Source: Escherichia coli
Lineage (GTDB): Bacteria > Pseudomonadota > Gammaproteobacteria > Enterobacterales > Enterobacteriaceae
Length of the DNA stretch: 14,301 bases
Assembly: GCF_003334405.1 (NCBI RefSeq)
Contig: NZ_QOWM01000030.1
Reading direction: 5' to 3' (one strand)
The notes beneath the pieces are model-generated. The model saw nothing but the letters and a program-made list of their open reading frames with translations, made no database searches and was not told where the DNA came from. A program made the position numbers and the translations under genes. Numbering within the stretch: position 1 is the stretch's first letter; the number at the start of each line of letters is the position of its first letter. Shown here one piece after another: positions 1-14,301 of this stretch.

Positions 1-1146
1 GCGCCAACCTGTGGCCTGTGCTGTAGCAATTTGAAGCTCACCAGATCCTACCTTTCTCCAGGTACCGGATTGGCACGAAAGTATTGCCCCTGTATTATCG
101 CGGCCTACAAGGCCGTTAGGCGAACATGATGCGCCAGCAACGGCAGTTCTTTCCAGTTGTAAGTATTCACCAGTATAAAGGCGACCATCAGCCCGAACAG
201 TACCGCCTTTCACCTGACCGCCGGTATAGATGCCCTTGTTGTTTACACTTCGAACCCATGATCCATCGGACATATAAAATCCGCCACCGTGAGTTTCATT
301 GAGCCAGCCTTTACTGTTACGAGTAATTAACCAACCATTATTACTTCTGATATCACCGCCAGCGGTGACATTTACGTCAAAGTTTCCGCTATTGCCTTTT
401 ACCTGACCGCTGAAAGTGCCATTTACACCATTCACATTGCCGCTGAAATTACCTGTCTGGGCATTTACTGCCCCAACGTTATTCAGGTTATTTGATCCCA
501 TATCAATGGCCGTGTGCATTTTGTTTAAGTCAGGGCGACCATTGACCTGGAATCTGTAAAGACGATCAGTGTCCTCAGCTGCACCACTAAGTTCATCTGT
601 CGATAACAATACGGCAATATGCCCGTTACCGCTTTTGGCACCATAATTACTTAAAGCTACTGACCAGGAACGTAATGCACCTGTGGCTGTTTTGCCGTCC
701 TGGATATATCCACCAAGACCAGTGGTAATATCCTTAGCCATCTGGATAAGTGCTTTCACTGGATAAGGGGTGCCACCACTGGATACAACCATTGCCTGTA
801 GTAATTCCGGGTTTTGGGCGTTTCGAACCACATATGCCTGTAACCGCTGCCCCTCACTGTTTGTCTCAGTAAACCCGCCGGACAAAAAGCCGGTATTTTT
901 CAGCATGGTTGTCGTGATGACGGCAGGGGTTGTTGTGGTACTACTGGTCTGGAGAGTCGTGTAGTTTTTCCCTATATAAGAGCGGGCCGCACTGGTCCAG
1001 TTGCTGACAAGACGTGCTTCAGTTTGCCACCCTTTGGTTTGAATATAGTCCTGCCATATGCCCGCTCCCCAGGCAATCAGGAGCATAACAATCAATAAAG
1101 CCGCGCCAGTTTCCAGCGATGCCCAGCCTCGGTCATATTTTTTCAT
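1..1146 (-). CDS. pilV: Type IV prepilin-like minor pilin/adhesin PilV, N-terminal constant region; 3' end lies beyond the window edge
   Basis: I translated the minus strand in this frame by hand at both ends (1146 to about 300, and 300 to 1) with no stop; the track omits it because it has no stop in-window. N-terminus MKKYDRG|[19 protein letters not shown] is a short-leader type IV prepilin signature (Gly at -1, Glu at +5, then a hydrophobic helix). The ATG at 1146-1144 overlaps the pilU stop (ATGA). Two Cys near the visible C-terminus (ASCSPNG...AILSCQSG). Last gene of a pilL-V array. Confidence 0.8.
58..76 (-). other. Candidate shufflon sfx 19-bp site-specific recombination site (minus strand GTGCCAATCCGGTACCTGG) inside the 3' part of pilV
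   Basis: The exact 19-mer is read directly and encodes S-C-Q-S-G-T-W at about PilV residues 357-363. It matches my recollection of the conserved 19-bp repeat bounding invertible shufflon segments in IncI plasmids (Rci recombinase target). Only one copy is visible because the window ends 57 bp further on. Confidence 0.5.
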
Positions 1147-1802
1147 CAGATTACCCATAGTGGTTGATAAAGATTATCCAGCAGCAAAAGGACATGGCCA
1201 AAACATAGCCATGGACCCAGAGGGCCTTCTTTATGCCCTTTTATGCACCATGTTGAATGCCATAAGACAAATCCTCCTGTACCCAGCAACACACACCATA
1301 TGGCGTTATATAACCCTGACCATGCGGTAATACCTGCAATAAGCCACAGGTCTCCAGTGCCAATATTAAGACGATGGCGGTTAACTAATTTATGAAGGCA
1401 GAATAAGACAATTGCAGCAGTGGCAAATTCTGTTGTACGGAACCACCATATATCAGTCGTGATTTGTGATAGCATTCCTGCAATTAAAAAACGCCGGGTG
1501 AATGTTCCTGGTAATAAACCTGTCAGTGCATCCGTTACCGCCATTTGCAGTATGAACGAAAGAATAAGGACAGCATGAATACGGTAGAGCAGTGGTGATG
1601 ATGATAAAATAATTAACGCCACAGCTATACTGTATAGCCATATTCCTGACAGAACAGCAGGGTGTGTCTTATACCAGAGATGTCCCGTATCAGATAAAAA
1701 ATAACGAACTCTGAATAGCAGAGTTCGTCCAATAATGGAAAATGTGAACATCAATGGCAGTATATAAACAGGGGATAGACTTATGCCTACGATTGTCTGC
1801 AT
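1146..1802 (-). CDS. pilU: Prepilin peptidase (A24-type, type IV prepilin leader peptidase)
   Basis: Polytopic membrane protein with two Asp-containing motifs (AVTDALTG and IGTGDLWL) like the catalytic Asp pair of prepilin peptidases. I prefer the ATG at 1802 (218 aa), which has AGGGAGG 6 nt upstream, over the track start at 1829, which lacks a usable RBS. Either start overlaps the pilT 3' end. Confidence 0.8.
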
Positions 1803-2347
1803 TGCCTGCCTCCCTGTCCGGGAAGACATATCCCTTTCATGTCACGATAAATTCTCCATATTTTATTGGCATATTGCTCTCTTGTTTCATGTCTGTCCTT
1901 ACGGAATCCGGCATTGTATGACCCAAGGCAATTCCAGCTGACGCCACATATCTGAAAATGTCTTGCCAGTATCCAGCTTCCTATATGGATATTAAGGCAT
2001 GGTTTGGTGATTAAATCCTCAGACTTTTTTATTACGCCCATGTTTATCAGCTTTGGAATATGGGTTGAGTTTATTTGCATCAACCCATAATCCGTGCTAC
2101 TGGCTTTACCTGTTTTTTTGTCCTTATTTATATTAATTGCGCCCGGCCTCAACGAAGATTCCCCGGCAGAAATAGCCTTCAATAATAATGGTTCAATTTG
2201 ATAGCGCGCGCCGGCAGCGGCAAAGCAATTGTCCCACTTGTTGGTCCAGATCTGTTTGGGGGCTACGTATGAAGCTCGGGCGGGTGGAATAAGAGAAAAA
2301 AGCAGGATTAACAAAATAAGTCTGAGGGGTACTGTACCCCCTGACAT
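1787..2347 (-). CDS. pilT: Secreted lytic transglycosylase (SLT domain)
   Basis: N-terminal signal peptide (MSGGTVPLRLILLILLFSLIPPARA), catalytic-type AGESS motif and DYGLMQIN motif characteristic of SLT lytic transglycosylases. AGGAG RBS 6 nt upstream of the ATG at 2347. Confidence 0.8.
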   Translation of the reverse strand: MSGGTVPLRLILLILLFSLIPPARASYVAPKQIWTNKWDNCFAAAGARYQIEPLLLKAISAGESSLRPGAININKDKKTGKASSTDYGLMQINSTHIPKLINMGVIKKSEDLITKPCLNIHIGSWILARHFQICGVSWNCLGSYNAGFRKDRHETREQYANKIWRIYRDMKGICLPGQGGRQCRQS

Positions 2348-2356
2348 TAAAACTCC

Positions 2357-2971
2357 TTAACCATTGATGGTGAAGATAAGTTTGTTTGTACCAGTGCTGC
2401 CATTATCTGCCTTGCATTGCGTACTGGCTTCTTCAGTAGTGACTTTTCCATCACTGTGAGCAGTACTGTTCAGGGTAATGCCGTTAGTTAAACCAGTTTT
2501 ACTGATCCGTGTGGCAATCTGGATACAGGCATCCTGTGGGACTTTATCATAGGTAACGGTAAAACCGTTGTTGAACCCTGATGTTGAAGCCGGGGCAACA
2601 GTTACAGCACCGCCCCATGCGTTATAGAGCGTTGCTGTACCAGATGTTTTGTCGCCCTGTACTGTCATCCCAGAGGGAACGGCCCCCATCTGAATGAGGG
2701 CACCTGTCATTTTGGCACTGCTGGTAAATGTATATCCATCGCTACCTTTTAGCAGGCTCTGGGCACTTGTGATAATTGTTTGTATATTTGCGGTTTCAGT
2801 TGCCACATTGGTTCTTGTACGTAACGCATACAAACTACCCAGAACAACGACTATAACAAAAAGAACAACGAGCGCTATTGTTCCCTGCTCCAAAATTCCC
2901 CATCCTTTATCATGAGGCTCATTCTTCTTATTATTTCCAGTTAAAGTGGCATTAATATTTTCTACTAACAT
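2357..2971 (-). CDS. pilS: Type IVb major prepilin with long leader peptide
   Basis: 23-aa hydrophilic leader ending DKG, then W-G-I-L-E (Glu at +5) and a hydrophobic helix TIALVVLFVIVVVLGSLYAL; two C-terminal Cys (QDACIQ...STQCKADNG) typical of a pilin disulfide loop. GAGGA RBS 5 nt upstream. Confidence 0.8.
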   Translation of the reverse strand: MLVENINATLTGNNKKNEPHDKGWGILEQGTIALVVLFVIVVVLGSLYALRTRTNVATETANIQTIITSAQSLLKGSDGYTFTSSAKMTGALIQMGAVPSGMTVQGDKTSGTATLYNAWGGAVTVAPASTSGFNNGFTVTYDKVPQDACIQIATRISKTGLTNGITLNSTAHSDGKVTTEEASTQCKADNGSTGTNKLIFTING

Positions 2972-2988
2972 AAATATCCTCGTTTTGT

Positions 2989-4086
2989 TTAAAAGTTACC
3001 CATGCTGTTGTCACTAATAGACTGAATATCCATAATGGCAAAAACCAGTAACATGAGAGACATGACAAGAAATATCAGCATAATTAAACGAATCACGTTT
3101 GCCCGTTTCTTTACACGTTGAAGTGTTTGACTAAGCCATCGTTGACCATAATTGCTGATTAGCTCTGTTGCGCCATCTCCCTGTAATAAAGACAGGAAGT
3201 TGGCTGCTTCCCTGGATGGGAACTGATAACCGCACTGACGCAAAGCCAGTCCAAGATGATCCCCCTGGCGGACGCGGTAAATAATGCTGTCAAGACGCGT
3301 GCTTAACCATGGTGATGCAAACTCCTGAAGAATGTTTAGTGAGTTGAGCGTCGTCATTTTGGCTTTCAGAAGTGCAGCCATATTCAGGAGAAATGTTGCT
3401 CCCTGTATATCCTGATAAATACTCCATGGCATTATCTTGTCGGCAAAAGTACGAACACTGTCAGGGCTTTTCCAGTTTGGCAGAGACCATGATATTAAAC
3501 CTGTGATCACTGCAAAAAGAACGGCACATATAGCGCCGTAATTATCGACAAAAACAGATAATCCATAAAGAAAACCAAGAGCACCACTCCATGAATCGGG
3601 GGAACTTATTTTGCTCAGTTCAGGTATTAGCTCTGTATTCAGAACATATAATGTCCCCGTCATCATGATTAACAATCCCACCGGATAAATAGCCATTTGC
3701 CATATAGCCTGATGGATTTGTTCTTTTGCATCTGTAAGAGTGGTGGCGAATTGCAGTGCATCCACAATTGAACCACTTCTTATCCCGGCGCTGATTACTG
3801 CGGCCTCTTCCTGAGGAACCCATAAACTAAGAGTATATTCCAGAGAGTTTTCGCCACTGTTTTCACGAAGAGACTCAATGCAGTCTGTGGCCAGTTCAGC
3901 AAAGGGATGCCATTTTCGTCCAAAGTCTGTCCAGGCATCCCGCATCTGTTCCAGTGCGGTCTTTAATGGCTGTTTATTTTCCAGCAGAAAACGCAGGGCT
4001 TCGTAAAACTGCACCCTGTAGGGGGCGCTGAACGTTTTTCTGACAATGAAACGCCTCAGCCGTTGACTGAAATTCATTTCACGCAT
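2989..4086 (-). CDS. pilR: Inner-membrane platform protein of type IV pilus/T2SS (GspF/PilC family)
   Basis: 365-aa polytopic membrane protein located directly downstream of the GspE-like ATPase, as in type IV pilus operons. Family assignment rests on position, size and hydropathy rather than a sharp motif. Confidence 0.75.
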   Translation of the reverse strand: MREMNFSQRLRRFIVRKTFSAPYRVQFYEALRFLLENKQPLKTALEQMRDAWTDFGRKWHPFAELATDCIESLRENSGENSLEYTLSLWVPQEEAAVISAGIRSGSIVDALQFATTLTDAKEQIHQAIWQMAIYPVGLLIMMTGTLYVLNTELIPELSKISSPDSWSGALGFLYGLSVFVDNYGAICAVLFAVITGLISWSLPNWKSPDSVRTFADKIMPWSIYQDIQGATFLLNMAALLKAKMTTLNSLNILQEFASPWLSTRLDSIIYRVRQGDHLGLALRQCGYQFPSREAANFLSLLQGDGATELISNYGQRWLSQTLQRVKKRANVIRLIMLIFLVMSLMLLVFAIMDIQSISDNSMGNF

Positions 4087-4098
4087 GTTGTTCTCCTG

Positions 4099-5652
4099 TT
4101 AGACATCATCGATGCTGAGGCGCTCGTCTTCGTCCAGAGGGATGATTCTGTCGGCTTCAAGAGGGTCTACCAGACCTTCATTGATACGGCGAAGAAGATG
4201 CTCTACACGACTGATGCCTTTCATGTTTTCCAGCCAGTATTTACGTGCTGCAACTTTGCCGCGTGTTTTCAGAATCTGAAATAAGCGGTTATCAGGTTCT
4301 ATCACCTCAGCAATTACAGTCCTGCCGGTGAGGCCTTTACCTATTTCACCGCGCTTTCTGCCGTTAATGATTACGTCGTGATTACATTCAGAGCATCCGT
4401 GAGGATTTCGGAACCAGATATTATCTGTACTGCAGAGTGAATCTTTATTGCAGTGCCGCTCAAGGTAATCACGCTCGTCGTCGCTAAGTTCAGGTGCTCG
4501 CGTTTCCCATGGAATACGGCAGGAGGGACACAGAGTTGGTACAAGGCGCTGGCTGATCATCCCAATCAGTAATTGCGCATCGCAAATAAGATCGGCATTC
4601 ATACCCATCGTAATCATCCGCTCCGGTATACCCAGAGCTGAGTTTGTATGTAATGTCGTCAGAACTATGTGCCCGGTCTGTGCCGCGTAGGTGGTTGACA
4701 TCATCGAGATAAGATCGCGCATTTCCCCTTCCATGATGGCATCAGGGTCAAGTCGCATTGCCGATGAAATAGCCCGACTCCATGCCAGTTTGACGGCATC
4801 TTCGTCGGATTTGTCGCAGATAATCGGAGTCTGTGTTGCTCCCAGTATCTGTCCTTCCAGCGGATCTTCGATTGTTAGCAGGTGTCGCCCCTGATTATCG
4901 TCAAGATATACACGGCAGGCGCTGCGTAACGTTGTCGATTTACCGGAACCGGTTGGACCTGACAGGACTATTTTTCCTTCCGGGCGGCGCAGCATTATGT
5001 TCAGCAACCGGATTTGTTCCGGGATAAAGCCCAGTTGTTTAAACGTGGGAACTTTATCTCCGTCATCGGGTATCAGGCGCATAACTGCAATCAGACCGTC
5101 TCCCGTAGGTCTGTGACTGTAGCGTGCACCAAATATTCCTATTTTTCGCATTAATTGTGGGGACAGGCGCGCATCCTGTTCCCTTTGAGGGAAGAAACTG
5201 GTTTCAGTGACATCAGCCATTGACAGAATGGCTGTTGCGCAAAGTGAATAGCCCAGTGCTGGTTGATCTTCATCTACAGTCTGCAGTTCACCGAATATTC
5301 TCATGCGAACTTTGAAAATAGACTCAGAAATTAAAAAATGAATATCTGAAGCACCAAGTTTTCTGGCCGTTTCAAAATAAGATAGAACTTTCTTCTCACT
5401 TTCACTGACATCAGCAAGATCTTTCAGATGAATAATTCGTTCTTTCGGGCCTCTGTTTTTTTCATCCTGACCTGCTTCCTGTAACTCCGACAACGAGACT
5501 ACTTTTGGGTTGATGCCCGGATATAATTTTAGCAGTTCCTGGAGATTACTTTGTACGTCAGGCCTTGTCCGCTGGTTTGTTTCTATAAGAATTTCATGGG
5601 TGTCTCCCCGGGATATAAAAAGGAGAGCATCCTTCAGATTATATTTATCCAT
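4099..5652 (-). CDS. pilQ: Type IV pilus assembly ATPase (GspE/PilB family secretion NTPase)
   Basis: Walker A LSGPTGSGKSTTL, His-box-like TLHTNSALG, and a tetracysteine motif CPSC...CSEC typical of GspE-family ATPases; 517 aa. Confidence 0.85.
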   Translation of the reverse strand: MDKYNLKDALLFISRGDTHEILIETNQRTRPDVQSNLQELLKLYPGINPKVVSLSELQEAGQDEKNRGPKERIIHLKDLADVSESEKKVLSYFETARKLGASDIHFLISESIFKVRMRIFGELQTVDEDQPALGYSLCATAILSMADVTETSFFPQREQDARLSPQLMRKIGIFGARYSHRPTGDGLIAVMRLIPDDGDKVPTFKQLGFIPEQIRLLNIMLRRPEGKIVLSGPTGSGKSTTLRSACRVYLDDNQGRHLLTIEDPLEGQILGATQTPIICDKSDEDAVKLAWSRAISSAMRLDPDAIMEGEMRDLISMMSTTYAAQTGHIVLTTLHTNSALGIPERMITMGMNADLICDAQLLIGMISQRLVPTLCPSCRIPWETRAPELSDDERDYLERHCNKDSLCSTDNIWFRNPHGCSECNHDVIINGRKRGEIGKGLTGRTVIAEVIEPDNRLFQILKTRGKVAARKYWLENMKGISRVEHLLRRINEGLVDPLEADRIIPLDEDERLSIDDV

Positions 5653-5662
5653 ATCACGTTAC

Positions 5663-6115
5663 TCAGAAAGTAAGGGTAGTGCCATCACTTAACGTGACGC
5701 CAGACAATGAGATCGACTTCACCGTGACGGATGTACCTGGAAGCTGGCTGCCAGTGGTGACGCTTGTCTGACGTCCATCAGCCATGCGAAGAACGGCATG
5801 AAGACGTTTATCTTTGCCGTTTATTTCCATAATGATGGGCAATTCTTTTCTGTTTTTCGGTGCCGTTTTCTCTGAAACTGATGGCAAGGGGGCGGTCACA
5901 CCAGAGAAACCTGAAACAGTTTCAGATGATGAAGTAACATCTGATTCTTCAAGTTGTTTCTGTAACTGTGCACCCTGAACTTTTGCCTGTAAAAGAATAT
6001 TCCGGTTTTGTTGTGCTTCAAGTTCTCCTATTGTGACAAGAGGTTGTGTTGTGGCAAATGAAAAACCAGAGAAGAAAAATATGGAAGGAATAATGAGTAA
6101 TTTACTTGGACGCAT
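5663..6115 (-). CDS. pilP: Pilus assembly protein PilP (secreted/periplasmic, function unknown)
   Basis: 150-aa ORF with N-terminal signal peptide (MRPSKLLIIPSIFFFSGFSFA); its start overlaps the pilO 3' end by 14 nt; position in the operon. Confidence 0.65.
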   Translation of the reverse strand: MRPSKLLIIPSIFFFSGFSFATTQPLVTIGELEAQQNRNILLQAKVQGAQLQKQLEESDVTSSSETVSGFSGVTAPLPSVSEKTAPKNRKELPIIMEINGKDKRLHAVLRMADGRQTSVTTGSQLPGTSVTVKSISLSGVTLSDGTTLTF

Positions 6116-7397
6116 ATATATGACCTTCTGAGGAATAACTGAAAGTACCGCCGTTTAATTCAAAATGGATATTGCTCAGACGGACGCCGGTATCCTGAAG
6201 TAAAGGGAAAAATTCATCAGGATTTACAGGAGTTGATAAACTGAACTGATATTCTTTCCATTTCTGAACAGGGGCTGGTTCACCATCGTTGCCTGGTAAT
6301 GGCTCCGGTATGGCTATTTCATTAATGGCCGGTGTTAACTGTTTTTTCTGAAACCACGTGAACACCCGCATCAGTTGTTCTGAGGGGGCCGGGACAGCCT
6401 CGTCCCTGCCGGGCAGGGACGGCAGTGGACGGGTTACAGAAACCTGGCGTGCACCATCTTTAAGGTTAAAGTCAGGAATAACACCAAAGATTTCTTTACT
6501 TCTTGCCAGAAAACCCTCAATGGTTCCTCCAGGCTGTCGTTCGTAAATCAGTGTGAATGTCTCAGGAGTACATGTTCCACCGGTAAGTTTCCAGCCTTCC
6601 AGTGCGACCGGTGACGGTTTTCGAAGGTCCGCGCAGGCTTTCAGAAAATCACTGATTACAGGTTGTGATGCCCATGGATGCGGGAGTTCTGGCGGTGGAT
6701 CGGGCTTTTTAAACTGCAATCTTGCCCGTGCAGCTATCTCCTCGGGCGTCGGTACGACATCCGGCTCTGGCTGAGTCATCCAGAATACAGTGCCTGCGCC
6801 GGCTGCTACTAAAAACAGTACGGCAGGCAGTGTGAATTTGCTGCGATTGCCGACAGTAAGTTTGCAACGGCGGAGATCTGCTGATGATAACCGGGTAATA
6901 ATACTTTCCCAGTTATCAGGATGTTCCAGAGACGATACAACCTGCCATTTTTCGGGGGGCTCTTCGTTCATCGCCAGAAAAAGGCTGACCTTTTGGGCAA
7001 CGTCGGCATCATTTCCTGATAAGTCAGCCATAACGGCAGGCTGGCCATTAATGGAAGCAAGGAATAAGAGCTCCTTATCGCTGTACCGGAAGACACCGTA
7101 TCCATTTCTGACCCATGAGCAGAAAGCCAGTGCCAGGGAAAAATAATGATTGCGTTCTGGCCTGGTCAGTATTCCTGTGCCGGTAAGGCGGCTGATCTTT
7201 CCACGGGAATTTCTGCTGCCTACAGTCACTTTCAGGGAGGTAAGCCGTCTGGGTTTTACATGAGACTTGTGTTTATGATGTGAGGGGACGCGCTGTTTTT
7301 TTACGACAGGAGTCCATTTAAGACAGGCAGCCCACACGCGATGATTTACTTTAGGATCTGCGAGAAGCACTACCGGGTTGATATCTTCATCAGCCAT
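6102..7397 (-). CDS. pilO: Pilus assembly protein PilO (function unknown)
   Basis: 431-aa ORF with AGGAGG RBS 6 nt upstream of the ATG at 7397; start overlaps the pilN stop by 8 nt; one internal hydrophobic segment (LPAVLFLVAAGAGTVFWM). Assignment by operon position and size. Confidence 0.7.
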   Translation of the reverse strand: MADEDINPVVLLADPKVNHRVWAACLKWTPVVKKQRVPSHHKHKSHVKPRRLTSLKVTVGSRNSRGKISRLTGTGILTRPERNHYFSLALAFCSWVRNGYGVFRYSDKELLFLASINGQPAVMADLSGNDADVAQKVSLFLAMNEEPPEKWQVVSSLEHPDNWESIITRLSSADLRRCKLTVGNRSKFTLPAVLFLVAAGAGTVFWMTQPEPDVVPTPEEIAARARLQFKKPDPPPELPHPWASQPVISDFLKACADLRKPSPVALEGWKLTGGTCTPETFTLIYERQPGGTIEGFLARSKEIFGVIPDFNLKDGARQVSVTRPLPSLPGRDEAVPAPSEQLMRVFTWFQKKQLTPAINEIAIPEPLPGNDGEPAPVQKWKEYQFSLSTPVNPDEFFPLLQDTGVRLSNIHFELNGGTFSYSSEGHIYASK

Positions 7398-9072
7398 TAT
7401 TGCCTCCTGACGGGAAAGTCGGGGTAATGATGATCACAAGTGTGCTGCGTTCATTTTTCCCGGTTTGTGAACCACCAAATAATGGATTTGCTGGCGTAAA
7501 CGTACCGGCTTTACTTGTCGTCGTATTGTTCTGATCGAAACCAGTAACGACAAGTGATTGCCCTTCTTTCAGATTGACCTTCTGGCTCAGTGAACGCAGT
7601 TTGGTATATGGCATTTCGATGTAACTGTTTCCGTCTTTTGACGTAAAGCTACGGATAGTTGGGGGATCAGACAGATTAAAGTTCATCTGCAACTGGAGAT
7701 TGCCTGTTTTCTGAATTAAAGGCAGCAGGGTCATATTGAATCCAGTGGTGATCATGCCCGGTGTTAATGTTGTTGTTGCTCCTACATCCGTAGTCGTAGT
7801 TGTTGCTGACTGGGCGACGTAAACTGTCTGATCTGCCATCTGGATAGGTACCGGCGTCAGGTTTGTGACAGTGCTTTCTTGTGAAGTTACAACGCTGACA
7901 TCGCCCTGTTCACTCAGTGCTTTAATCAGAAGGCTGGAACCGCTGAATTTGGCGGCATTCCCTGTTGCCGTATCCAGAATTGATACGCCTGCAGATGTAG
8001 CGCCTGTAAAATCTCCGCTTGCATTGTTCAACGTTGCTCCGGCGGAATGTAGCGATTTGTAAACAAGGTTCCAGTCCAGACCGAACTGCTCGTTTCTGGT
8101 ATTGCTGACGCTCAGAACCTGTACGTTCAGGGCTACCTGGCGGTTCATAATACTGTTTTGTTCGTCCACATATCGTGCGACGGCTTCCTGGACAGCAGGA
8201 GTATCAGTGACTGTCAGCGTTGAGCTCGATGCAGATAACCAGTAACGGCCTTTTTCTGGTGTCAGCATCGCTTCAATAGTTTTCCGGATGTCTTCATACA
8301 GGTCGTATTCCTGACCGACGGTTGTGCTCTGAGAGGACGTAGCATCACCGGATGCTGAGTTATCCTGGCCTCCTGTTGCCCCCATTGTGCTTGTTGAGCC
8401 AGAGCTGACGCTGGAACTGCTGCTGGTTTTGGTGTTCAGCATATGAAGTGGATACGTTCTGGTTTCAGTCAGATAGAATACAATCCGACCATTATCCATG
8501 CGCCAGTACAGACCGCTTCGGCTGGCCATCAGATCCAGAAGACCATTGATATCTCCCTGCCACATGAGGTTATTCAGCGTTAATGGCTGAGTGGAGGTAG
8601 TCATTGTTGTGCTGCCCAGGCTGCTTAACGGCAGACGACCATTTTCATCAGGTGCTGGTAGTGTCCCAGTCATCTGGCGGGTAGCGCCTCCTTCAAGAGT
8701 TGAATTGGCTGCGTCAGGGGTGATGATTACGGGGATGCCGCATACGGCAGTAATACGTTGCCCCAGTTCCTGTAGAGTGATCTCTCCTTTTCTTGCCTGC
8801 GTGATGTAGCAGGCCGGAGCTGTTTGTTTTTTCTCTCTTGATACCTGAGCGACCGGAACGGGGTTTATCCATTGATTATCGAGCCAGGTAAGAGCCTGTG
8901 ATTTGCGGGCAGAAAGGGCTGATACCTTTTCCCGTGCATGTGCTGAGTCTTCCTGTGCTTTTTTCTGCATTTTATTGATTTCGCTGAAAGTACATCCGGA
9001 GATGGAAAGAGCGACGGCGATCATGCAGGGGAGCACCGCCAGCTTCATTGAACGCTGGTGTGATTTTTTCAT
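7390..9072 (-). CDS. pilN: Secretin-family outer-membrane lipoprotein
   Basis: Lipoprotein signal with lipobox (AVALSISGC), C-terminal secretin-like region (...SLVVTGFDQNNTTTSKAGTFTPANPLFGGSQTGKNERSTLVIIITPT) and an internal Ser/Thr-rich linker; 560 aa. Start could alternatively be the internal Met at 9048. Confidence 0.75.
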   Translation of the reverse strand: MKKSHQRSMKLAVLPCMIAVALSISGCTFSEINKMQKKAQEDSAHAREKVSALSARKSQALTWLDNQWINPVPVAQVSREKKQTAPACYITQARKGEITLQELGQRITAVCGIPVIITPDAANSTLEGGATRQMTGTLPAPDENGRLPLSSLGSTTMTTSTQPLTLNNLMWQGDINGLLDLMASRSGLYWRMDNGRIVFYLTETRTYPLHMLNTKTSSSSSVSSGSTSTMGATGGQDNSASGDATSSQSTTVGQEYDLYEDIRKTIEAMLTPEKGRYWLSASSSTLTVTDTPAVQEAVARYVDEQNSIMNRQVALNVQVLSVSNTRNEQFGLDWNLVYKSLHSAGATLNNASGDFTGATSAGVSILDTATGNAAKFSGSSLLIKALSEQGDVSVVTSQESTVTNLTPVPIQMADQTVYVAQSATTTTTDVGATTTLTPGMITTGFNMTLLPLIQKTGNLQLQMNFNLSDPPTIRSFTSKDGNSYIEMPYTKLRSLSQKVNLKEGQSLVVTGFDQNNTTTSKAGTFTPANPLFGGSQTGKNERSTLVIIITPTFPSGGNNG

Positions 9073-9085
9073 GAATATATCCAGA

Positions 9086-9523
9086 TTAGTTAACGTAGAC
9101 GACAGAACCAGCAGTAATGCCTGCCGGGGGTGTCAGACCGGTTGCAGTTCCTGATAGCCAGGTGAGTTGCCCGTTTTGGAAGATCCCTATTAGTGCAGAA
9201 CCACGACTTTTTGAACGCAAAGTTTCAACAAGTCCTGGTTGTTCAGGCATCCATACCCACAGACGTCCCTGTTGTAACTGATGTTTAATTCGGGAGTCCG
9301 GAGTGACAGGGAGAGCCAGTTTATCTGAAGAAATTACTCCGTCCTGCTGGCCTGATACGTATCTGATATCATTGATTCTGTTAGCAATCATTAGTATCTG
9401 ACTTGCCCATACAGACGCACTTGCATATTGCTGGGCGTTCGTGGTTTCAGACATCTGCTGATTCTGGTAGCTTCCAGTGATAATCAGAATGGTCAGGCCG
9501 ACGGCCATGACCAGCCATCCCAT
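9086..9523 (-). CDS. pilM: Pilus assembly protein PilM (small membrane-anchored protein)
   Basis: 145-aa ORF with an N-terminal transmembrane segment (MGWLVMAVGLTILIITG); its start codon overlaps the pilL stop (TAATG at 9521-9525). Confidence 0.65.
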   Translation of the reverse strand: MGWLVMAVGLTILIITGSYQNQQMSETTNAQQYASASVWASQILMIANRINDIRYVSGQQDGVISSDKLALPVTPDSRIKHQLQQGRLWVWMPEQPGLVETLRSKSRGSALIGIFQNGQLTWLSGTATGLTPPAGITAGSVVYVN

Positions 9524-10590
9524 TAGCGACCATCCCTTGTATCAGAAACTGTAATGATGCACTGCATGCGAGAAGCCTGTGCGTATAAAGGTTTTTGCGC
9601 AGTCCGATATAACTCAAATACCTGCTCCATGGCTGATTCAAATGATCCCCGGAACATTAAAGGCGCATCCAGACGGTAATCGGTTACAGAAAGTGGCCAT
9701 ATGACCATCCAGTGCGTTGATGCCATGCTTTCGCATTTTGTTTCTTCTGCCCACTTGATAATGTTCTCTCTTAATGTGGTGCCTGCCGGCGCACGCCACT
9801 CTTTACCCTGAGATACCGGTTTAACAGGCGTTCCGGTCATGAGCGGGATAGACTTGACTGTGGAGCCGGTTGGAGTCGGGGTGGTGGCGGGCGTTGACGA
9901 AGATACGTTGTTTCCCCTGAATGGATTTCGTGGTTTGTTCTGGCTATTTGCTGTCGTTGGAGATTCAGGGGTAGTGGATGTGGTTACCATGGCTGCTGGC
10001 GAGATAGTGGTTGCCGTGTCCTGTGTCGGTGCAGCAGCTGATGTTGTGACGGTCAACGTTTTATTATCCCAGTCCAGATGGCCCCAGAGGTGTTGTTCTT
10101 CCAGCAACCGGTTCAGAGAACGGGTCCACTGATCATTGGCAGACCATGAAACCAGTTTGGTATTCAGCTTGGGCGTGGCTGCATTCTCTTGTCTGAATTT
10201 CCATCCTTCCGGTAGTAATGTTTTTATCCACTGACTGACGGTCCGGTTACGGGCCGTCGGCGATAGTGTTACAGGGGCGCTACCAGGCTTGCCTGTAATG
10301 ATTAACCGGGAGAAATTCTGACTTATTGTTGGTGAAGGTAACGGTCGGGATTCGCTAACAGGCTGTGCTGTTTTTACTGTCTCTGGCACGCTGACTCTCG
10401 GGGGCGGAGTTATTTTAGGTGGAGAAAGACGTTGTTGCGTAAGTGCCAGAACGCCAGCACTCTCACTGATTTGTCCGTCAACAAAAACCAGAGCAGGCGT
10501 ATCTGATGGTGCCACGTTATTACTGCCGGAAATTCCGGCACAGCCGGATAATAATGATGGCAGTATAAGTGTCAGATAGTTTTTTTTCAT
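9523..10590 (-). CDS. pilL: Pilus assembly lipoprotein PilL
   Basis: Lipoprotein signal with lipobox (LPSLLSGCAG); 355 aa; Pro-rich then Ser/Thr/Pro-rich low-complexity segment (residues about 181-258); GGAG RBS 8 nt upstream of the ATG at 10590. Confidence 0.7.
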   Translation of the reverse strand: MKKNYLTLILPSLLSGCAGISGSNNVAPSDTPALVFVDGQISESAGVLALTQQRLSPPKITPPPRVSVPETVKTAQPVSESRPLPSPTISQNFSRLIITGKPGSAPVTLSPTARNRTVSQWIKTLLPEGWKFRQENAATPKLNTKLVSWSANDQWTRSLNRLLEEQHLWGHLDWDNKTLTVTTSAAAPTQDTATTISPAAMVTTSTTPESPTTANSQNKPRNPFRGNNVSSSTPATTPTPTGSTVKSIPLMTGTPVKPVSQGKEWRAPAGTTLRENIIKWAEETKCESMASTHWMVIWPLSVTDYRLDAPLMFRGSFESAMEQVFELYRTAQKPLYAQASRMQCIITVSDTRDGR

Positions 10591-10623
10591 AACGGAGACT
10601 CCGTGTTCGTATATACGTGTTTG

Positions 10624-11214
10624 TTAATTGGTGTGAGGCGGCTGGAGAGGACGAATGACGACTGTCATTCCGTCCGAATGCAAATGCGGGAGAGACCACT
10701 GAAATAAGAGATATACAAAAGGAATTGATAATCTTTCATACAGACTTGTTTTCCGTGGGCATGTAATAACAGAGAAATTCAAACCATAAGATTCCAGTCT
10801 CTTTATAAGTTTATTTATTCTTGCAGGAGTAAAGAGATGTGAATGCATAACAATGGTTTCATCATTATTAATTGCTTTTGATATCAGAGAAAGTAACACA
10901 TCCCAGTGTTTCCTCATTGACTCCGGGCAACGTGTATCGGCATAGGGGCTAAGATGTATGCTTGATTCTTTACTGCCTTTTTTTTTCGTAAAGAATGTGA
11001 AGTTGTATTTAGATACAGACCTTACGATAAGAAGTACGCATCTGAAAAGTAGTGGGGAAAAGCAAATAATAACCACTATACAGAAATATAATATATAAGA
11101 TAGTGATATGTGGTCAGTGTATAGATAACGGAAGTATTGCCACGGGGTAGTGATGTACAGGCAAAAAGTACACCAAAGTAACCATAGATATAATGGTACG
11201 TTATTATTTTTCAT
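10624..11214 (-). CDS. pilK: Hypothetical membrane protein (two N-terminal TM helices plus soluble domain), possibly PilK-like
   Basis: 196-aa ORF immediately upstream of pilL on the same strand; its ATG overlaps the stop of the preceding ORF (ATGA at 11211-11214). Strongly AT-rich compared with the flanking pil genes. The pilK name is inferred only from position and size. Confidence 0.45.
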   Translation of the reverse strand: MKNNNVPLYLWLLWCTFCLYITTPWQYFRYLYTDHISLSYILYFCIVVIICFSPLLFRCVLLIVRSVSKYNFTFFTKKKGSKESSIHLSPYADTRCPESMRKHWDVLLSLISKAINNDETIVMHSHLFTPARINKLIKRLESYGLNFSVITCPRKTSLYERLSIPFVYLLFQWSLPHLHSDGMTVVIRPLQPPHTN

Positions 11215-11507
11215 ATTAGTTGACTTTTAATACTGTTTTCTATCACCACATTTTTATGTGTCTCATTTGGCACTTCGTACTGTTGGAAATATTGTTGGCG
11301 GCGGATGCGTGTCTGTTCACTGCTTTCTATTAACACCGCCATGGCGATTGCAAAGTATATGCAAATCAGGAAAATCCAGAACGCGTTTGGTATCTTCCAA
11401 AAAAGTGTGGACAGTTTGTTATGTGGTGAAACTAAAATCGGAGAAAGGATTCCACAGACAATCACAATAGCGATGGTTAATTTAACTAGAAAGAACATGG
11501 TAAACAT
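11211..11507 (-). CDS. pilJ: Hypothetical small membrane protein (two predicted TM helices), possibly PilJ-like
   Basis: I prefer the ATG at 11507 (98 aa, MFTMFFLVKLTIAIVIVCGI...), which has GGAG 7 nt upstream; the track start at 11564 is a TTG with no RBS. AT-rich. Translationally coupled to the downstream pilK-like ORF. Confidence 0.4.
   Translation of the reverse strand: MFTMFFLVKLTIAIVIVCGILSPILVSPHNKLSTLFWKIPNAFWIFLICIYFAIAMAVLIESSEQTRIRRQQYFQQYEVPNETHKNVVIENSIKSQLI
11453..11500. repeat. 48-bp direct repeat, copy A (inside the 5' coding region of the pilJ-like ORF)
   Basis: cacagacaatcacaatagcgatggttaatttaactagaaagaacatgg matches copy B at 11595-11642 at 44 of 48 positions, offset 142 bp. 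Confidence 0.8.
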
Positions 11508-11594: not shown

Positions 11595-11642
11595 CACAGA
11601 CAATCGCAATCGCGATGGTTAATTTAACTAAAAAGAACACGG
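11595..11642. repeat. 48-bp direct repeat, copy B (intergenic, upstream of the pilJ-like ORF)
   Basis: cacagacaatcgcaatcgcgatggttaatttaactaaaaagaacacgg; similarity to copy A extends weakly a further ~12 bp to the left. On the minus strand it would encode a degenerate copy of the pilJ-like N-terminal helix (VFFLVKLTIAIAIVCV) without the ATG. Confidence 0.8.
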
Positions 11643-11682: not shown

Positions 11683-11937
11683 TTACGACAGCCAGTCCTG
11701 TAGATGCTGATGGCGGGAGCTGCTGCCCTTGTGCCAGCGGCAGTGGCTGCCGGGAGCACGCTCCAGTCGGAACAGAAATCGGTTGTCGCGTAGTACCACC
11801 ACGATACAGTTATCCGGCGTGCAGAAACGTCGGGCAAGCTCATCGGGGTCTGTCGGTGTTTTCGTTGAAAACAGCCTGCGTTTGCAGTGTGCGTCGACGA
11901 CCAGTATTTGCAGTCGTCCGGGATGTTGCTGTGGCAT
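11683..11937 (-). CDS. Hypothetical small protein (84 aa), Cys/His-containing, GC-rich; possibly PilI-like
   Basis: Internal ATG at 11937 is preceded by GGAAGGAG with a 6-nt spacer, a much better start than the track ATG at 11982. The ORF is GC-rich, unlike the adjacent AT-rich block. No recognisable domain. Confidence 0.4.
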   Translation of the reverse strand: MPQQHPGRLQILVVDAHCKRRLFSTKTPTDPDELARRFCTPDNCIVVVLRDNRFLFRLERAPGSHCRWHKGSSSRHQHLQDWLS

Positions 11938-12108
11938 CAAAGACTCCTTCCGGAACGGGAAAAGAAGCAGCTGTACCGTCATAACTGCACGTACCGGTTG
12001 CGAAAAAACGGCACAAGCGAGTAGTGACAGAAAGAATGTCGGAAACGGCAGGAAGGGCGGTACAGGCTGCGAAGACTGGAAACGGGGTATGCCGGGGATT
12101 ACACATCC

Positions 12109-12792
12109 TCAGTGTAATGTGATAGTCGTCTGTTCCTGTGTTGCACCCCAGACATCTTCTGGCAGGCTGGGCAGCCCGATAAATAGGGTGTGAAAGAGGG
12201 TTTCTCTGCGTTCGATCCCGAATTGATGTTCGTATCCTCTCACCACCTGAAATCCTTCGTCGGAGAATATTAACTCTGCCGTTTCCAGAAGCTGCATAGT
12301 TTTGCGGTGTAGTGGAGTGATCAGCTGCAACGTAACTGGTGCCCTCATATCGCCTGTCGGTAGAAAACACTCTTCGGTGCGACTTAGTTGTAGCAGATGG
12401 CGTTTCCCGGAACAGGCCCGTTCAATGGATTCATTGAACACCCTCTCAGGCCATGGGCAGACATAAGTGCGCCAGCCTGCTTTCTGTAATTTACCCAGCG
12501 CAGCCCGAAAACGAAACAACGGACATTCCCCGACAGTGGCAGAGCTGAGAAAGAGCGTATTCAGCGTTCCGATGATGGGAATATTGCGATCTTTTTCGGT
12601 CAATGCTTTTAACGCCATGATTTCGCCAGGGAGACTACGGAACTCAGGATGTCTGCTGGCACCAGAAAGCCATTCAAGCAGGTAATGCCGTAATCCGGTT
12701 TCACTGGTTATATTGTGGTTTTCCTGTGCCGTTTTCAGGGCATTCAGTGCACACCAGAGCAACTGGCGCACGGGATGTTCTGTCGTGGTCAT
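12109..12792 (-). CDS. Hypothetical protein (227 aa), possibly a transfer-region regulatory protein (TraC-like)
   Basis: ATG at 12792 with AGGA 7 nt upstream; lies directly downstream of the NusG-paralog gene and its terminator. I recognise no motif; the TraC-like suggestion is based only on remembered IncI1 gene order. Confidence 0.5.
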   Translation of the reverse strand: MTTTEHPVRQLLWCALNALKTAQENHNITSETGLRHYLLEWLSGASRHPEFRSLPGEIMALKALTEKDRNIPIIGTLNTLFLSSATVGECPLFRFRAALGKLQKAGWRTYVCPWPERVFNESIERACSGKRHLLQLSRTEECFLPTGDMRAPVTLQLITPLHRKTMQLLETAELIFSDEGFQVVRGYEHQFGIERRETLFHTLFIGLPSLPEDVWGATQEQTTITLH

Positions 12793-13010
12793 GCGAATGT
12801 CCTACTGTGAGATGAAAAGAAGACCGGTATCCGTTCTCTCCGCCACACGTGATGGCACGGGCCGGCCTTTGATAAAACGAATCAATACTCTGGGGTGAAG
12901 CCTTTTATTTCTTTCGCCATTAAGAAATACACAGTTCCATCAAAAGACAGGGGGAGTCCATGGTGGGGATGGCTCCGTGCAGGCTTCACTCCAGAATATT
13001 CTCTTGAATT

Positions 13011-13040
13011 GAAAAAAGCCCGGCCCGAAGGCCGGGAAAT
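13011..13040 (-). terminator. Rho-independent terminator downstream of the NusG-paralog gene
   Basis: Perfect 7-bp GC-rich stem (cccggcc at 13019-13025, ggccggg at 13030-13036) with a 4-nt loop; on the minus strand it is followed by a TTTTTT tract (13012-13017). It sits 6 bp after the stop of the 13046..13600 ORF. Confidence 0.6.
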
Positions 13041-13045
13041 ACTGG

Positions 13046-13600
13046 CTATGGGATGTTTACAAGGCGCTCCATAAAGCCGTGATGTTCGGCATTTGATACC
13101 AGTTCCAGGAGCAGGGATATCCTCGACTCAGGCTGGAGAGTATTTTCCATTCTGAGGAGATACTGATATTGTGCTTTTGTCAGCCATATGCTGGAAGCCG
13201 CATTCAGCTCTTCCCTGGCTCCCGGATTTAGCACAGGGTCCGGGTAAATCTTCATTAATCCATCAACAATATCTTTATTGATGGGTTTTATTTCACCGCC
13301 AAACTTCACGAAATCAATGAAGGCGCTATGTCGACGTAATGCCGATACTGGTTGAATGTCAAAATTAGCCAGAATAAAAAAGTACCCAGGAAAAATAGCG
13401 AATATTCTTTCACGGTAACAGCACCTGGAGTCTGCCCGTCTTATCTTTCTTGTTATTAATGGAGTCCATGGTACGACGTTTTGCTCATTCAGCCATGAGA
13501 ATAAAGATTCTCTGTTTTTGCCGGCTGTATTATATTGCGCAAGATACCAGTTCCGGTTATTCAGGTGTTCTATATTCACGAAGTTCAACGCTCCGCGCAA
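13046..13600 (-). CDS. NusG/RfaH-family transcription antiterminator paralog (TraB/ActX-like)
   Basis: Recognisable similarity to the RfaH N-terminal domain: NWYLAQY (compare RfaH SWYLLYCK), FPGYFFILANFD (compare FPNYLFVEFD), FVKFGGEIKPI (compare FVRFGASPAIVP). The start is uncertain: the track start at 13600 is a TTG, and a GTG at 13579 is an alternative. Confidence 0.75.
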   Translation of the reverse strand: MRGALNFVNIEHLNNRNWYLAQYNTAGKNRESLFSWLNEQNVVPWTPLITRKIRRADSRCCYRERIFAIFPGYFFILANFDIQPVSALRRHSAFIDFVKFGGEIKPINKDIVDGLMKIYPDPVLNPGAREELNAASSIWLTKAQYQYLLRMENTLQPESRISLLLELVSNAEHHGFMERLVNIP

Positions 13601-14020: not shown

Positions 14021-14301
14021 TCACATTTTTTCGTTTTCTTTAGCTGTATTGCTAATCATGAAAACGAAAGTTCGCATCAGCACAGCAGAGCGAAGTGCAT
14101 CATATCCTTCCAGATTTAAATTCTTCAGGCTTCGCTTCAGGTAGGTTCGTACCGTTTCGGGAGAAAGCCGGCAGTTCTGGGCAATGGCGTCGTAAGGAAC
14201 ACCCATTGCGTAAAAAACGCAGACTGAGGTAGCCTGAGTTTAACGGACACTCCTTCCTGAAATAGAATGGCATCAGAAGGAGCTAATAATGAGCAGAAAA
14301 A
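14021..14301 (-). CDS. LuxR/GerE-type helix-turn-helix transcriptional regulator, C-terminal part (N-terminus probably beyond the window edge)
   Basis: YDAIAQNCRLSPETVRTYLKRSLKNLNLEG fits the LuxR-type HTH pattern (compare GerE KEIASELFISEKTVRNHISNAMQKLGV). The frame stays open upstream of the track ATG (14206) to the window edge by my hand translation, so the true start is unresolved. Confidence 0.5.

Follow-up and report, generated by a model that had tools for sequence, protein, structure and literature searches.

The DNA analysed here (the window, below) is a 14,301-nucleotide (nt) stretch of the Escherichia coli contig NZ_QOWM01000030.1, in which the long open reading frames (ORFs) from position 1 to about 13,600 are all on the minus strand. 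It is the traA-traB-traC/pilI-pilV region of a conjugative plasmid of the IncI complex, similar to R64, and the thin pilus encoded in it is of type IVb. A megablast search of PLSDB matched 2124 plasmids, 1265 of which span at least 80% of the window, and hundreds matched at 98–99% identity; the top matches reach 98.9% and are typed as IncI-gamma/K1, MOBP and MPF_I, and many IncI-gamma/K1 or I1 plasmids stand at this level. R64 itself (NC_005014.1) is 98.1% identical over 11.2 kb (window 57-11223). In the near-identical records, the Prokaryotic Genome Annotation Pipeline (PGAP) gives the order traA, a NusG-family gene (traB), traC, pilI, two small hypothetical genes, pilL, pilM, pilN, pilO2, pilP, an ATPase, a GspF-family protein, the major pilin, a lytic transglycosylase, a prepilin peptidase and then the shufflon adhesin pilV, so that the order pilL-M-N-O-P-Q-R-S-T-U-V on one strand is seen both in the ORFs of the window and in the PGAP names of the 98–99% identical records and R64. 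Searches with NCBIfam models agree with these names: PilN matches TIGR02520 (482.6 bits, cutoff 287.65), PilP matches TIGR03021 (115.8 bits, cutoff 34.65), and PilQ, PilR and PilT match the expected superfamily models, PilT as an IagB-like transglycosylase (E 1.6e-36). PilS and PilU gave no NCBIfam match and are named after PGAP in the near-identical records. An earlier note on this stretch had described a compact same-strand pil cluster and named its genes, and both are right, since the PGAP annotation of the near-identical records and the NCBIfam matches agree. A pil operon for the thin pilus of R64/ColIb-P9, running from pilI to pilV, reportedly goes back to work of Kim and Komano in 1997 and of Yoshida and colleagues in 1999. 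The cluster is also called the 'pil operon' in later literature, where pilI-pilV is treated as an operon (PMC4288162, PMC3984277), and the R64/ColIb-P9 thin-pilus pil operon comes up in passages of PMC10286972 and PMC3984277. The genes of the region, with the Shine-Dalgarno (SD) sequences seen before them, are as follows.

1..1146, minus strand: pilV, minor pilin/tip adhesin; 5' 382 codons, open to the window edge; PGAP name from records of about 99% identity
1146..1802, minus strand: pilU, prepilin peptidase of 218 amino acids; PGAP start 1802 in L001, L002, R64 and L011
1787..2347, minus strand: pilT, lytic transglycosylase; SD AAGGAG, 9 nt past pilS
2357..2971, minus strand: pilS, major type IVb prepilin; spacers of 17 and 9 nt, own SD GAGGA
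2989..4086, minus strand: pilR, GspF-family platform protein; SD AGGAG, 12 nt past pilQ
4099..5652, minus strand: pilQ, assembly ATPase of the GspE/PilB superfamily; weak SD, 10 nt past pilP
5663..6115, minus strand: pilP, lipoprotein; ATG within the C-terminal codons of PilO
6102..7397, minus strand: pilO, PilO2 family; strong SD AGGAGG
7390..9072, minus strand: pilN, secretin lipoprotein; weak SD, 13 nt past pilM
9086..9523, minus strand: pilM, from ORF and PGAP; ATG shares 1 nt with the TAA of pilL
9523..10590, minus strand: pilL, lipoprotein; SD GGAG, 33 nt past pilK
10624..11214, minus strand: pilK, 196 amino acids, AT-rich, without SD; about 98% identical to its counterpart in L002, a plasmid closely related to R64
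11211..11507, minus strand: pilJ, short variant of 98 amino acids from ATG 11507; SD GGAG
11683..11937, minus strand: pilI, 84 amino acids; SD GGAAGGAG
12109..12792, minus strand: traC, transfer regulator, DUF2913-like
12793..13048, minus strand: traB-traC intergenic region with T1, a long-range helix and T3 (see below)
13046..13600, minus strand: traB, RfaH-like NusG paralog

Every junction in the cluster was recomputed from the sequence by script. From pilL to pilV all junctions are 17 nt or shorter, with five overlaps and five gaps. The overlaps are pilL/pilM (TAATG, 9525-9521, 1 nt), pilN/pilO (ATGGCTGA, 7397-7390, 8 nt), pilO/pilP (6115-6102, 14 nt), pilT/pilU, and pilU/pilV (TGATG, 1148-1144, where the stop TGA at 1148-1146 and the start ATG at 1146-1144 share 1 nt); the gaps are 13 nt at pilM/pilN, 10 nt at pilP/pilQ, 12 nt at pilQ/pilR, 17 nt at pilR/pilS and 9 nt at pilS/pilT. 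Outside this range, pilJ/pilK overlap by 4 nt (ATGA, 11214-11211) and pilK/pilL are 33 nt apart. The length of the pilT/pilU overlap depends on the start of pilU: counted from the longest ORF (ATG 1829) it comes to 43 nt, and counted from ATG 1802 to 16 nt. The latter is the credible start, as judged from its SD (GGGAGG, the best in the cluster) and from the 218-residue product that PGAP calls in all the relatives, and the 227-residue ORF was rejected in favour of it; likewise, a 117-residue TTG ORF for pilJ was rejected in favour of the SD-backed ATG 11507. The same overlap of 16 nt is also found in a lineage of plasmids whose PilQ is only 67% identical. The coordinates in the junction list of the earlier note are all correct, as are its gap range of 9–17 bp and its statement that pilL-pilV holds no promoter-sized gap (the largest spacer is 17 nt), while its label 'ATGA' for pilU/pilV has to be replaced by TGATG. 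The junction series from pilL to pilV is identical in R64 (-1, +13, -8, -14, +10, +12, +17, +9, -16 and -1 nt), so that this geometry is in the public record already, and it is the same in the 94.8%-identical lineage L003. In the neighbouring tra operon of R64 the traH/I/J/K junctions are all -4, and the tra genes of pESBL (IncI1) show similar runs of -1 and -4 junctions. The tight packing is real and non-random, and it is normal for operons of conjugative plasmids.

The strength of the SD sequences was estimated as the energy of the duplex with the anti-SD at positions -20 to -4, for which the background has a mean of -2.0 and a 10th percentile of -5.6 kcal/mol. Seven genes have strong SDs (pilL -6.1, pilM -8.2, pilO -10.3, pilR -7.4, pilS -5.9, pilT -8.7 and pilU -11.1 kcal/mol), and by this measure pilM, pilO, pilR, pilS, pilT and pilU would have an effective ribosome-binding site of their own; in pilO and pilU, which have long overlaps, the SD lies within the upstream gene. 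Five genes have weak SDs (pilK -0.4, pilN -3.1, pilP -4.1, pilQ -2.2 and pilV -3.7 kcal/mol). Among these, pilK, pilV, pilN and pilQ would possess no effective ribosome-binding site of their own, and pilP is marginal. The weak SDs of pilK, pilV and pilP stand at overlaps and those of pilN and pilQ after gaps of 10–13 nt. The earlier remark that the gaps usually carry an SD sequence therefore holds for pilR, pilS and pilT (-5.9 to -8.7 kcal/mol) and fails for pilN and pilQ. As for distance, stop and start codons are close enough for coupling at every one of these junctions, the overlaps being 4, 1, 8, 14, 16 and 1 nt long and the gaps 9–17 nt. Taken from sequence, translational coupling is plausible, most so for pilK, pilV, pilN, pilQ and pilP, and the shortest overlaps (pilK, pilV) and the short gaps (pilN, pilQ) leading into weak-SD genes would fit termination-reinitiation. 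Classical coupling at ATGA/TGATG junctions is that of trpE-trpD and trpB-trpA of E. coli; pilK and pilV are like these pairs in having a 1- or 4-nt stop/start overlap together with a weak downstream SD, and unlike them in that coupling in the pil cluster is a prediction from sequence.

On the basis of junction geometry and SD strength, it is probable that the R64-like pil cluster, lying downstream of traB and traC, is expressed from one long mRNA along which ribosomes are handed over, and co-transcription with translational coupling seems the most likely explanation. The twelve-kilobase gene row from pilL to pilV would then most likely form a single mRNA, which may start upstream of pilI or, with read-through, even at traB. 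Ribosomes would probably pass from cistron to cistron. Termination-reinitiation would serve pilK, pilV, pilN, pilQ and partly pilP, which lack an SD of their own, and pilL, pilM, pilO, pilR, pilS, pilT and pilU could also initiate by themselves from good SDs, mostly situated inside the preceding gene.

How far the overlaps themselves matter can be seen from other plasmids. Seven further lineages were compared using the deposited annotation (L004, IncI2; L005, Salmonella IncFIB; L006 and L007, IncK2/Z-typed; L008, pO104_H7; L009 and L011, Enterobacter), which brings the junction comparison to ten pil loci in all. The core order pil(L)MNOPQRSTUV is shared with the IncI2 (pHXH-5/TP114-like), IncK2/Z, pO104_H7/pO113-like, Salmonella IncFIB and Enterobacter clusters. 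These other R64-type clusters differ in having larger, variable spacers (up to 120 nt) and, in four of them, a stem-loop right after pilS, whereas in the clade of the window these spacers have been squeezed out. Compactness is greatest in the R64 clade (median spacing 4 nt, maximum 17 nt). Across eight divergent lineages, junctions other than pilO/pilP extend from -17 to +120 nt, for example from -8 to +38 at N/O, -11 to +103 at P/Q, -16 to +18 at T/U and -4 to +98 at U/V. The gene pilS is spaced on both sides and never overlapped in all lineages compared. 'Pervasive overlaps' are confined to the R64 clade. The exception is pilO/pilP, which overlap by 8–17 nt in 10 of 10 loci (17 nt in L011, counted from the homologous start). 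In nine of the ten, down to roughly 30–40% PilQ identity, a motif GGT-N(7-8)-TATG is embedded at this junction, in which TATG consists of the conserved C-terminal Tyr codon of PilO (C-terminal codons 'EGxxYA') and the next codon, and the SD-like GGT, 7–8 nt before TATG, derives from Glu/Lys/Thr-Gly codons. Judged by this conservation, the pilO/pilP overlap is the only old feature among the junctions and the sole one that resembles a functional coupling preserved across lineages; the rest of the compaction occurs just in the R64 clade, where it probably reflects streamlining, not a requirement.

These data also bear on the alternative that the compaction has no function, having arisen from deletion bias and drift of start and stop codons under plasmid size pressure, with independent ribosome-binding sites and without meaningful coupling. 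It draws support from the junction types, which at N/O, T/U and U/V vary as given above despite the kept gene order, from the good SDs at 7 of 12 starts, and from pilJ/pilK, where the ATGA arose by loss of the C-terminal third of PilJ (the gap in R64 is +49). It does not account for the pilO/pilP overlap kept in all ten loci, with its motif in nine, nor for the five genes with SDs at background level, which sit 0–13 nt from the preceding stop, as reinitiation predicts. We hold this alternative to be quite unlikely.

The segment around pilJ differs from R64 in several ways. PilJ of the window has 98 amino acids compared with 150 in R64, in which pilJ and pilK are separated by 49 nt; its C-terminal about 50 residues are gone, and it is because of this loss that pilJ abuts pilK. 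This short-pilJ arrangement is found in about 470 PLSDB records, and the pilJ/pilK ATGA is lineage-specific. The whole pilI-pilK segment is mosaic and AT-rich (about 38% GC) and holds a 46-nt direct repeat (11595-11640 and 11453-11498, minus strand), the upstream copy being a remnant of the 5' end of an R64-type pilJ after pilI and the downstream copy the start of the functional short pilJ. Compared with R64, then, the window has a short pilJ, an ATGA junction to pilK, a 46-nt pilJ remnant, no traD, and IS600 in traA. The gene traD, which is present between traC and pilI in R64 and L002, is absent at 12101-12106; pESBL and pA117-CTX-M-8 lack it too, and L001 has a different 552-bp ORF flanked by a 93-bp repeat there.

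Whether the cluster is a uniform unit depends on what lies inside it. Promoter-like consensus matches are as frequent as in shuffled sequences (22 found, 23.5 expected), and no sigma-70-like site (at least 9 of 12 matches) is present on the minus strand in pilQ or upstream of pilR. Terminator-like sites number 22, compared with 13.0 ± 3.6 in the shuffles, and are mostly poor. The earlier claim of no internal terminators is accordingly too strong, as besides this excess there is one hairpin of canonical shape (HP2) inside pilU. The hairpins that were followed up are these.

1696..1729, minus strand: HP2, terminator-shaped hairpin with U6; within codons 25-36 of pilU, some 58 nt beyond the stop of pilT
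2320..2345, minus strand: HP1, weak hairpin beginning at the G of the pilT start codon
12171-12194 (L004), 12144-12161 (L006), about 12156-12175 (L007) and about 11978-12001 (L008): hairpins right after pilS in these lineages

HP2 has a stem of 10–11 bp and a 5-nt loop, followed by UAUUUUUU, with a folding free energy (dG) of -16.3 kcal/mol and a z-score (z) of -5.6; its strength is comparable to that of the terminator after traB (dG -15.8). It is identical in R64, and in L003 the stem is unchanged and one loop base differs, while the surrounding 150-nt stretch has 9 substitutions. Among 3000 synonymous recodings that keep the peptide, no more than 17 (0.6%) are as stable. However, it is absent in L004-L008 and in L011, the next-closest lineage. 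Moreover, since about 200 such windows fit in the cluster, its significance is marginal and this level is expected about once by chance, and being invariant within the R64/I-gamma clade, it offers no covariation. A real role of HP2 as an attenuator or stabiliser is conceivable but doubtful.

HP1 (dG -12.4, z -1.9) is kept in L003 via a U-A to U-G change and matches the position of the post-pilS hairpins in other lineages; as a coupling hairpin it was rejected, since 6% of synonymous recodings fold as well and its z is not significant. Two further hairpins (3539-3521 and 1217-1190) were unremarkable under recoding. A hairpin after the pilin gene is a familiar design of type IV pilus operons, as in those of tcpA and bfpA. 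Strong GC-rich hairpins are placed right after pilS in L004, L006, L007 and L008, whose pilS/pilT spacers are wide (z -2.9 to -3.9), of which only that of IncI2 (L004) has a full U-tract. In the R64 clade only 9 nt follow pilS, and HP2 and HP1 are the only candidates there for an equivalent of the post-pilin hairpin.

A non-uniform unit also has to be weighed, in which either an internal promoter feeds pilR-pilV, or HP2 acts as a partial terminator or stability hairpin that lowers pilU/pilV relative to pilS. In other type IV pilus operons the hairpin behind the pilin gene has the latter effect. The stability, U6 tract and identity in R64 of HP2, together with its rarity among recodings, the excess of terminator-like sites and the GC-rich post-pilS hairpins of four lineages (with the U-tract in L004) speak for it, as does the transposon pattern in pESBL described below, in which pilL-pilP are neutral and pilR-pilV required. 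On the other side stand the absence of HP2 from L011 and all the distant lineages, its marginal significance after correction for about 200 windows, the lack of a sigma-70-like site in pilQ or upstream of pilR, and the possibility that the pESBL transposon reads out. We regard a non-uniform unit as possible, at a tentative level.

Several points weigh against co-transcription with translational coupling as the explanation for the packing. Transposon insertion sequencing (TnSeq) of pESBL during surface transfer showed that pilR, pilS, pilT, pilU and pilV are required, that pilL, pilM, pilN, pilO and pilP are not, and that pilQ is intermediate (PMC4288162). If one upstream promoter served the cluster and the insertions were polar, hits in the upstream genes should score like those downstream; insertions in pilL-pilP do not phenocopy those in pilR-pilV, which disfavours simple polarity unless the transposon reads out. 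We take the pattern, which may come from transposon read-out or from internal initiation, as a caveat and not as a refutation. The pattern is odd for pilus biology as well, the secretin gene pilN being neutral and the ATPase gene pilQ intermediate, and its authors give no explanation. In addition, the seven other lineages keep the same gene pairs with spacers of 1–120 nt, and because they work with such spacers, the overlaps are dispensable and mostly unneeded for function. There is also the terminator-shaped HP2 inside pilU, which remains a candidate only. Finally, we found no description of a transcription start site, Northern blot or RNA-seq of the pil genes in the literature searched, a search that did not extend to the original R64 papers. 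Of the earlier proposal of one polycistronic unit without internal terminators, the compact same-strand cluster stands, and the remainder is weakened by HP2 and by the pESBL TnSeq data. Co-transcription with coupling is still the explanation that we prefer.

At the other end of the window, within pilV, there is one more feature of the plasmid family.

58..76, minus strand: 19-bp repeat GTGCCAATCCGGTACCTGG, inside pilV

We take this repeat to be a shufflon sfx site, from what is known of the R64 shufflon. When the window is aligned to L001, L002 and R64, the match is interrupted at 57/77 and continues in another part of the shufflon, which suggests that bases 1-57 belong to a shufflon segment whose joining is not that of the reference plasmids. 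The gene rci and the remaining shufflon segments fall beyond the window edge.

Upstream of the pil genes, the region from traB to pilI contains several structures that may govern the transcript as a whole.

13036-13012, minus strand: T1, intrinsic terminator directly after the traB stop (dG -15.8)
12996-12981 pairing with 12903-12888, minus strand: long-range helix downstream of T1
12867-12815, minus strand: T3, terminator-like hairpin before traC; its equivalent in L012 is followed by TTTTTT
11967-12070, minus strand: traC-pilI spacer, with a long hairpin (z -3.3) and then a U-rich run directly upstream of the pilI SD

TraB gives a full-length match to the RfaH model TIGR01955 (E 1.1e-10), which is below the family cutoff, and PGAP assigns it to the NusG family. 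Published work describes it as a plasmid-borne paralog of NusG/RfaH that R64 needs for transfer (PMC11880322, PMC6391919). L005, L007 and L011 likewise encode a NusG paralog upstream of their pil genes, and none was seen in the other lineages within the sequence stretches retrieved. An equivalent of T1 follows the traB homologue in eight divergent lineages, mostly with the stem CCCGGCC/GGCCGGG; the stem differs in L005 (TGCCCCT/AGGGGCA), L011 (CCCCC/GGGGG) and L014 (CCCCCG/CGGGGG). Conservation of the long-range helix extends to seven sequences, which represent about four independent lineages. Over its 15 pairs, 95% of the cells are paired, compared with 32–47% when the partner is slid by 1–3 columns, and there are 6 compensatory double changes compared with 0–1 in the slid controls, with G-U pairs on this strand only. 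A scan of the whole window against Rfam (E<=1) gave no match. The hairpin in the traC-pilI spacer appears to be another terminator-like barrier before the pil genes.

From its sequence TraB is a candidate processive antiterminator acting over the downstream traC-pil genes, and the traB-traC region is a candidate for a structured regulatory RNA connected with antitermination by TraB. This resembles RfaH/ops and the plasmid-borne PrfaH (IncX3) in that TraB is likewise RfaH-like over its full length and is encoded just upstream of transfer and pilus genes, with terminators in its putative path, namely T1 and the hairpins before traC, before pilI and in pilU. It differs in that matches to the RfaH-type ops element GGCGGTAGNNTG are at chance level only (9 with at most 2 mismatches in the window, 8.7 expected, and none in the minus-strand leader), and the recruitment site of TraB may differ from ops. 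An antitermination cascade of this kind, as yet undescribed, in which TraB-modified polymerase would pass T1, the long-range helix and the hairpins before traC, before pilI and in pilU, ribosome hand-over would protect the 12-kb transcript, and the pilU hairpin would lower the dose of peptidase and tip adhesin, we consider rather unlikely. The last about 76 bases of the window (14225-14301) are the end of an insertion sequence, IS600 (IS3 family, typical of Shigella), inserted in traA. Considering that traA is a positive regulator of traB in pESBL, plasmid transfer and pilus expression may be altered here.

The packing of the pil genes is in itself an ordinary and already known finding, since abutting and overlapping cistrons are usual in operons of conjugative plasmids and the R64 sequence has shown exactly this arrangement since the 1990s. 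Among its details, the pilO/pilP overlap is the only one that is deeply conserved, which points to a possible stoichiometric pairing of PilO and PilP, and the spacers and hairpins that follow the pilin gene in other lineages have been lost from the R64 clade. The traB-pilI regulatory region is more interesting than the packing of the junctions: the real control point is probably upstream, with TraB, the conserved terminator and the structured RNA, and this could help to explain how the transfer genes of IncI resistance plasmids are switched on.

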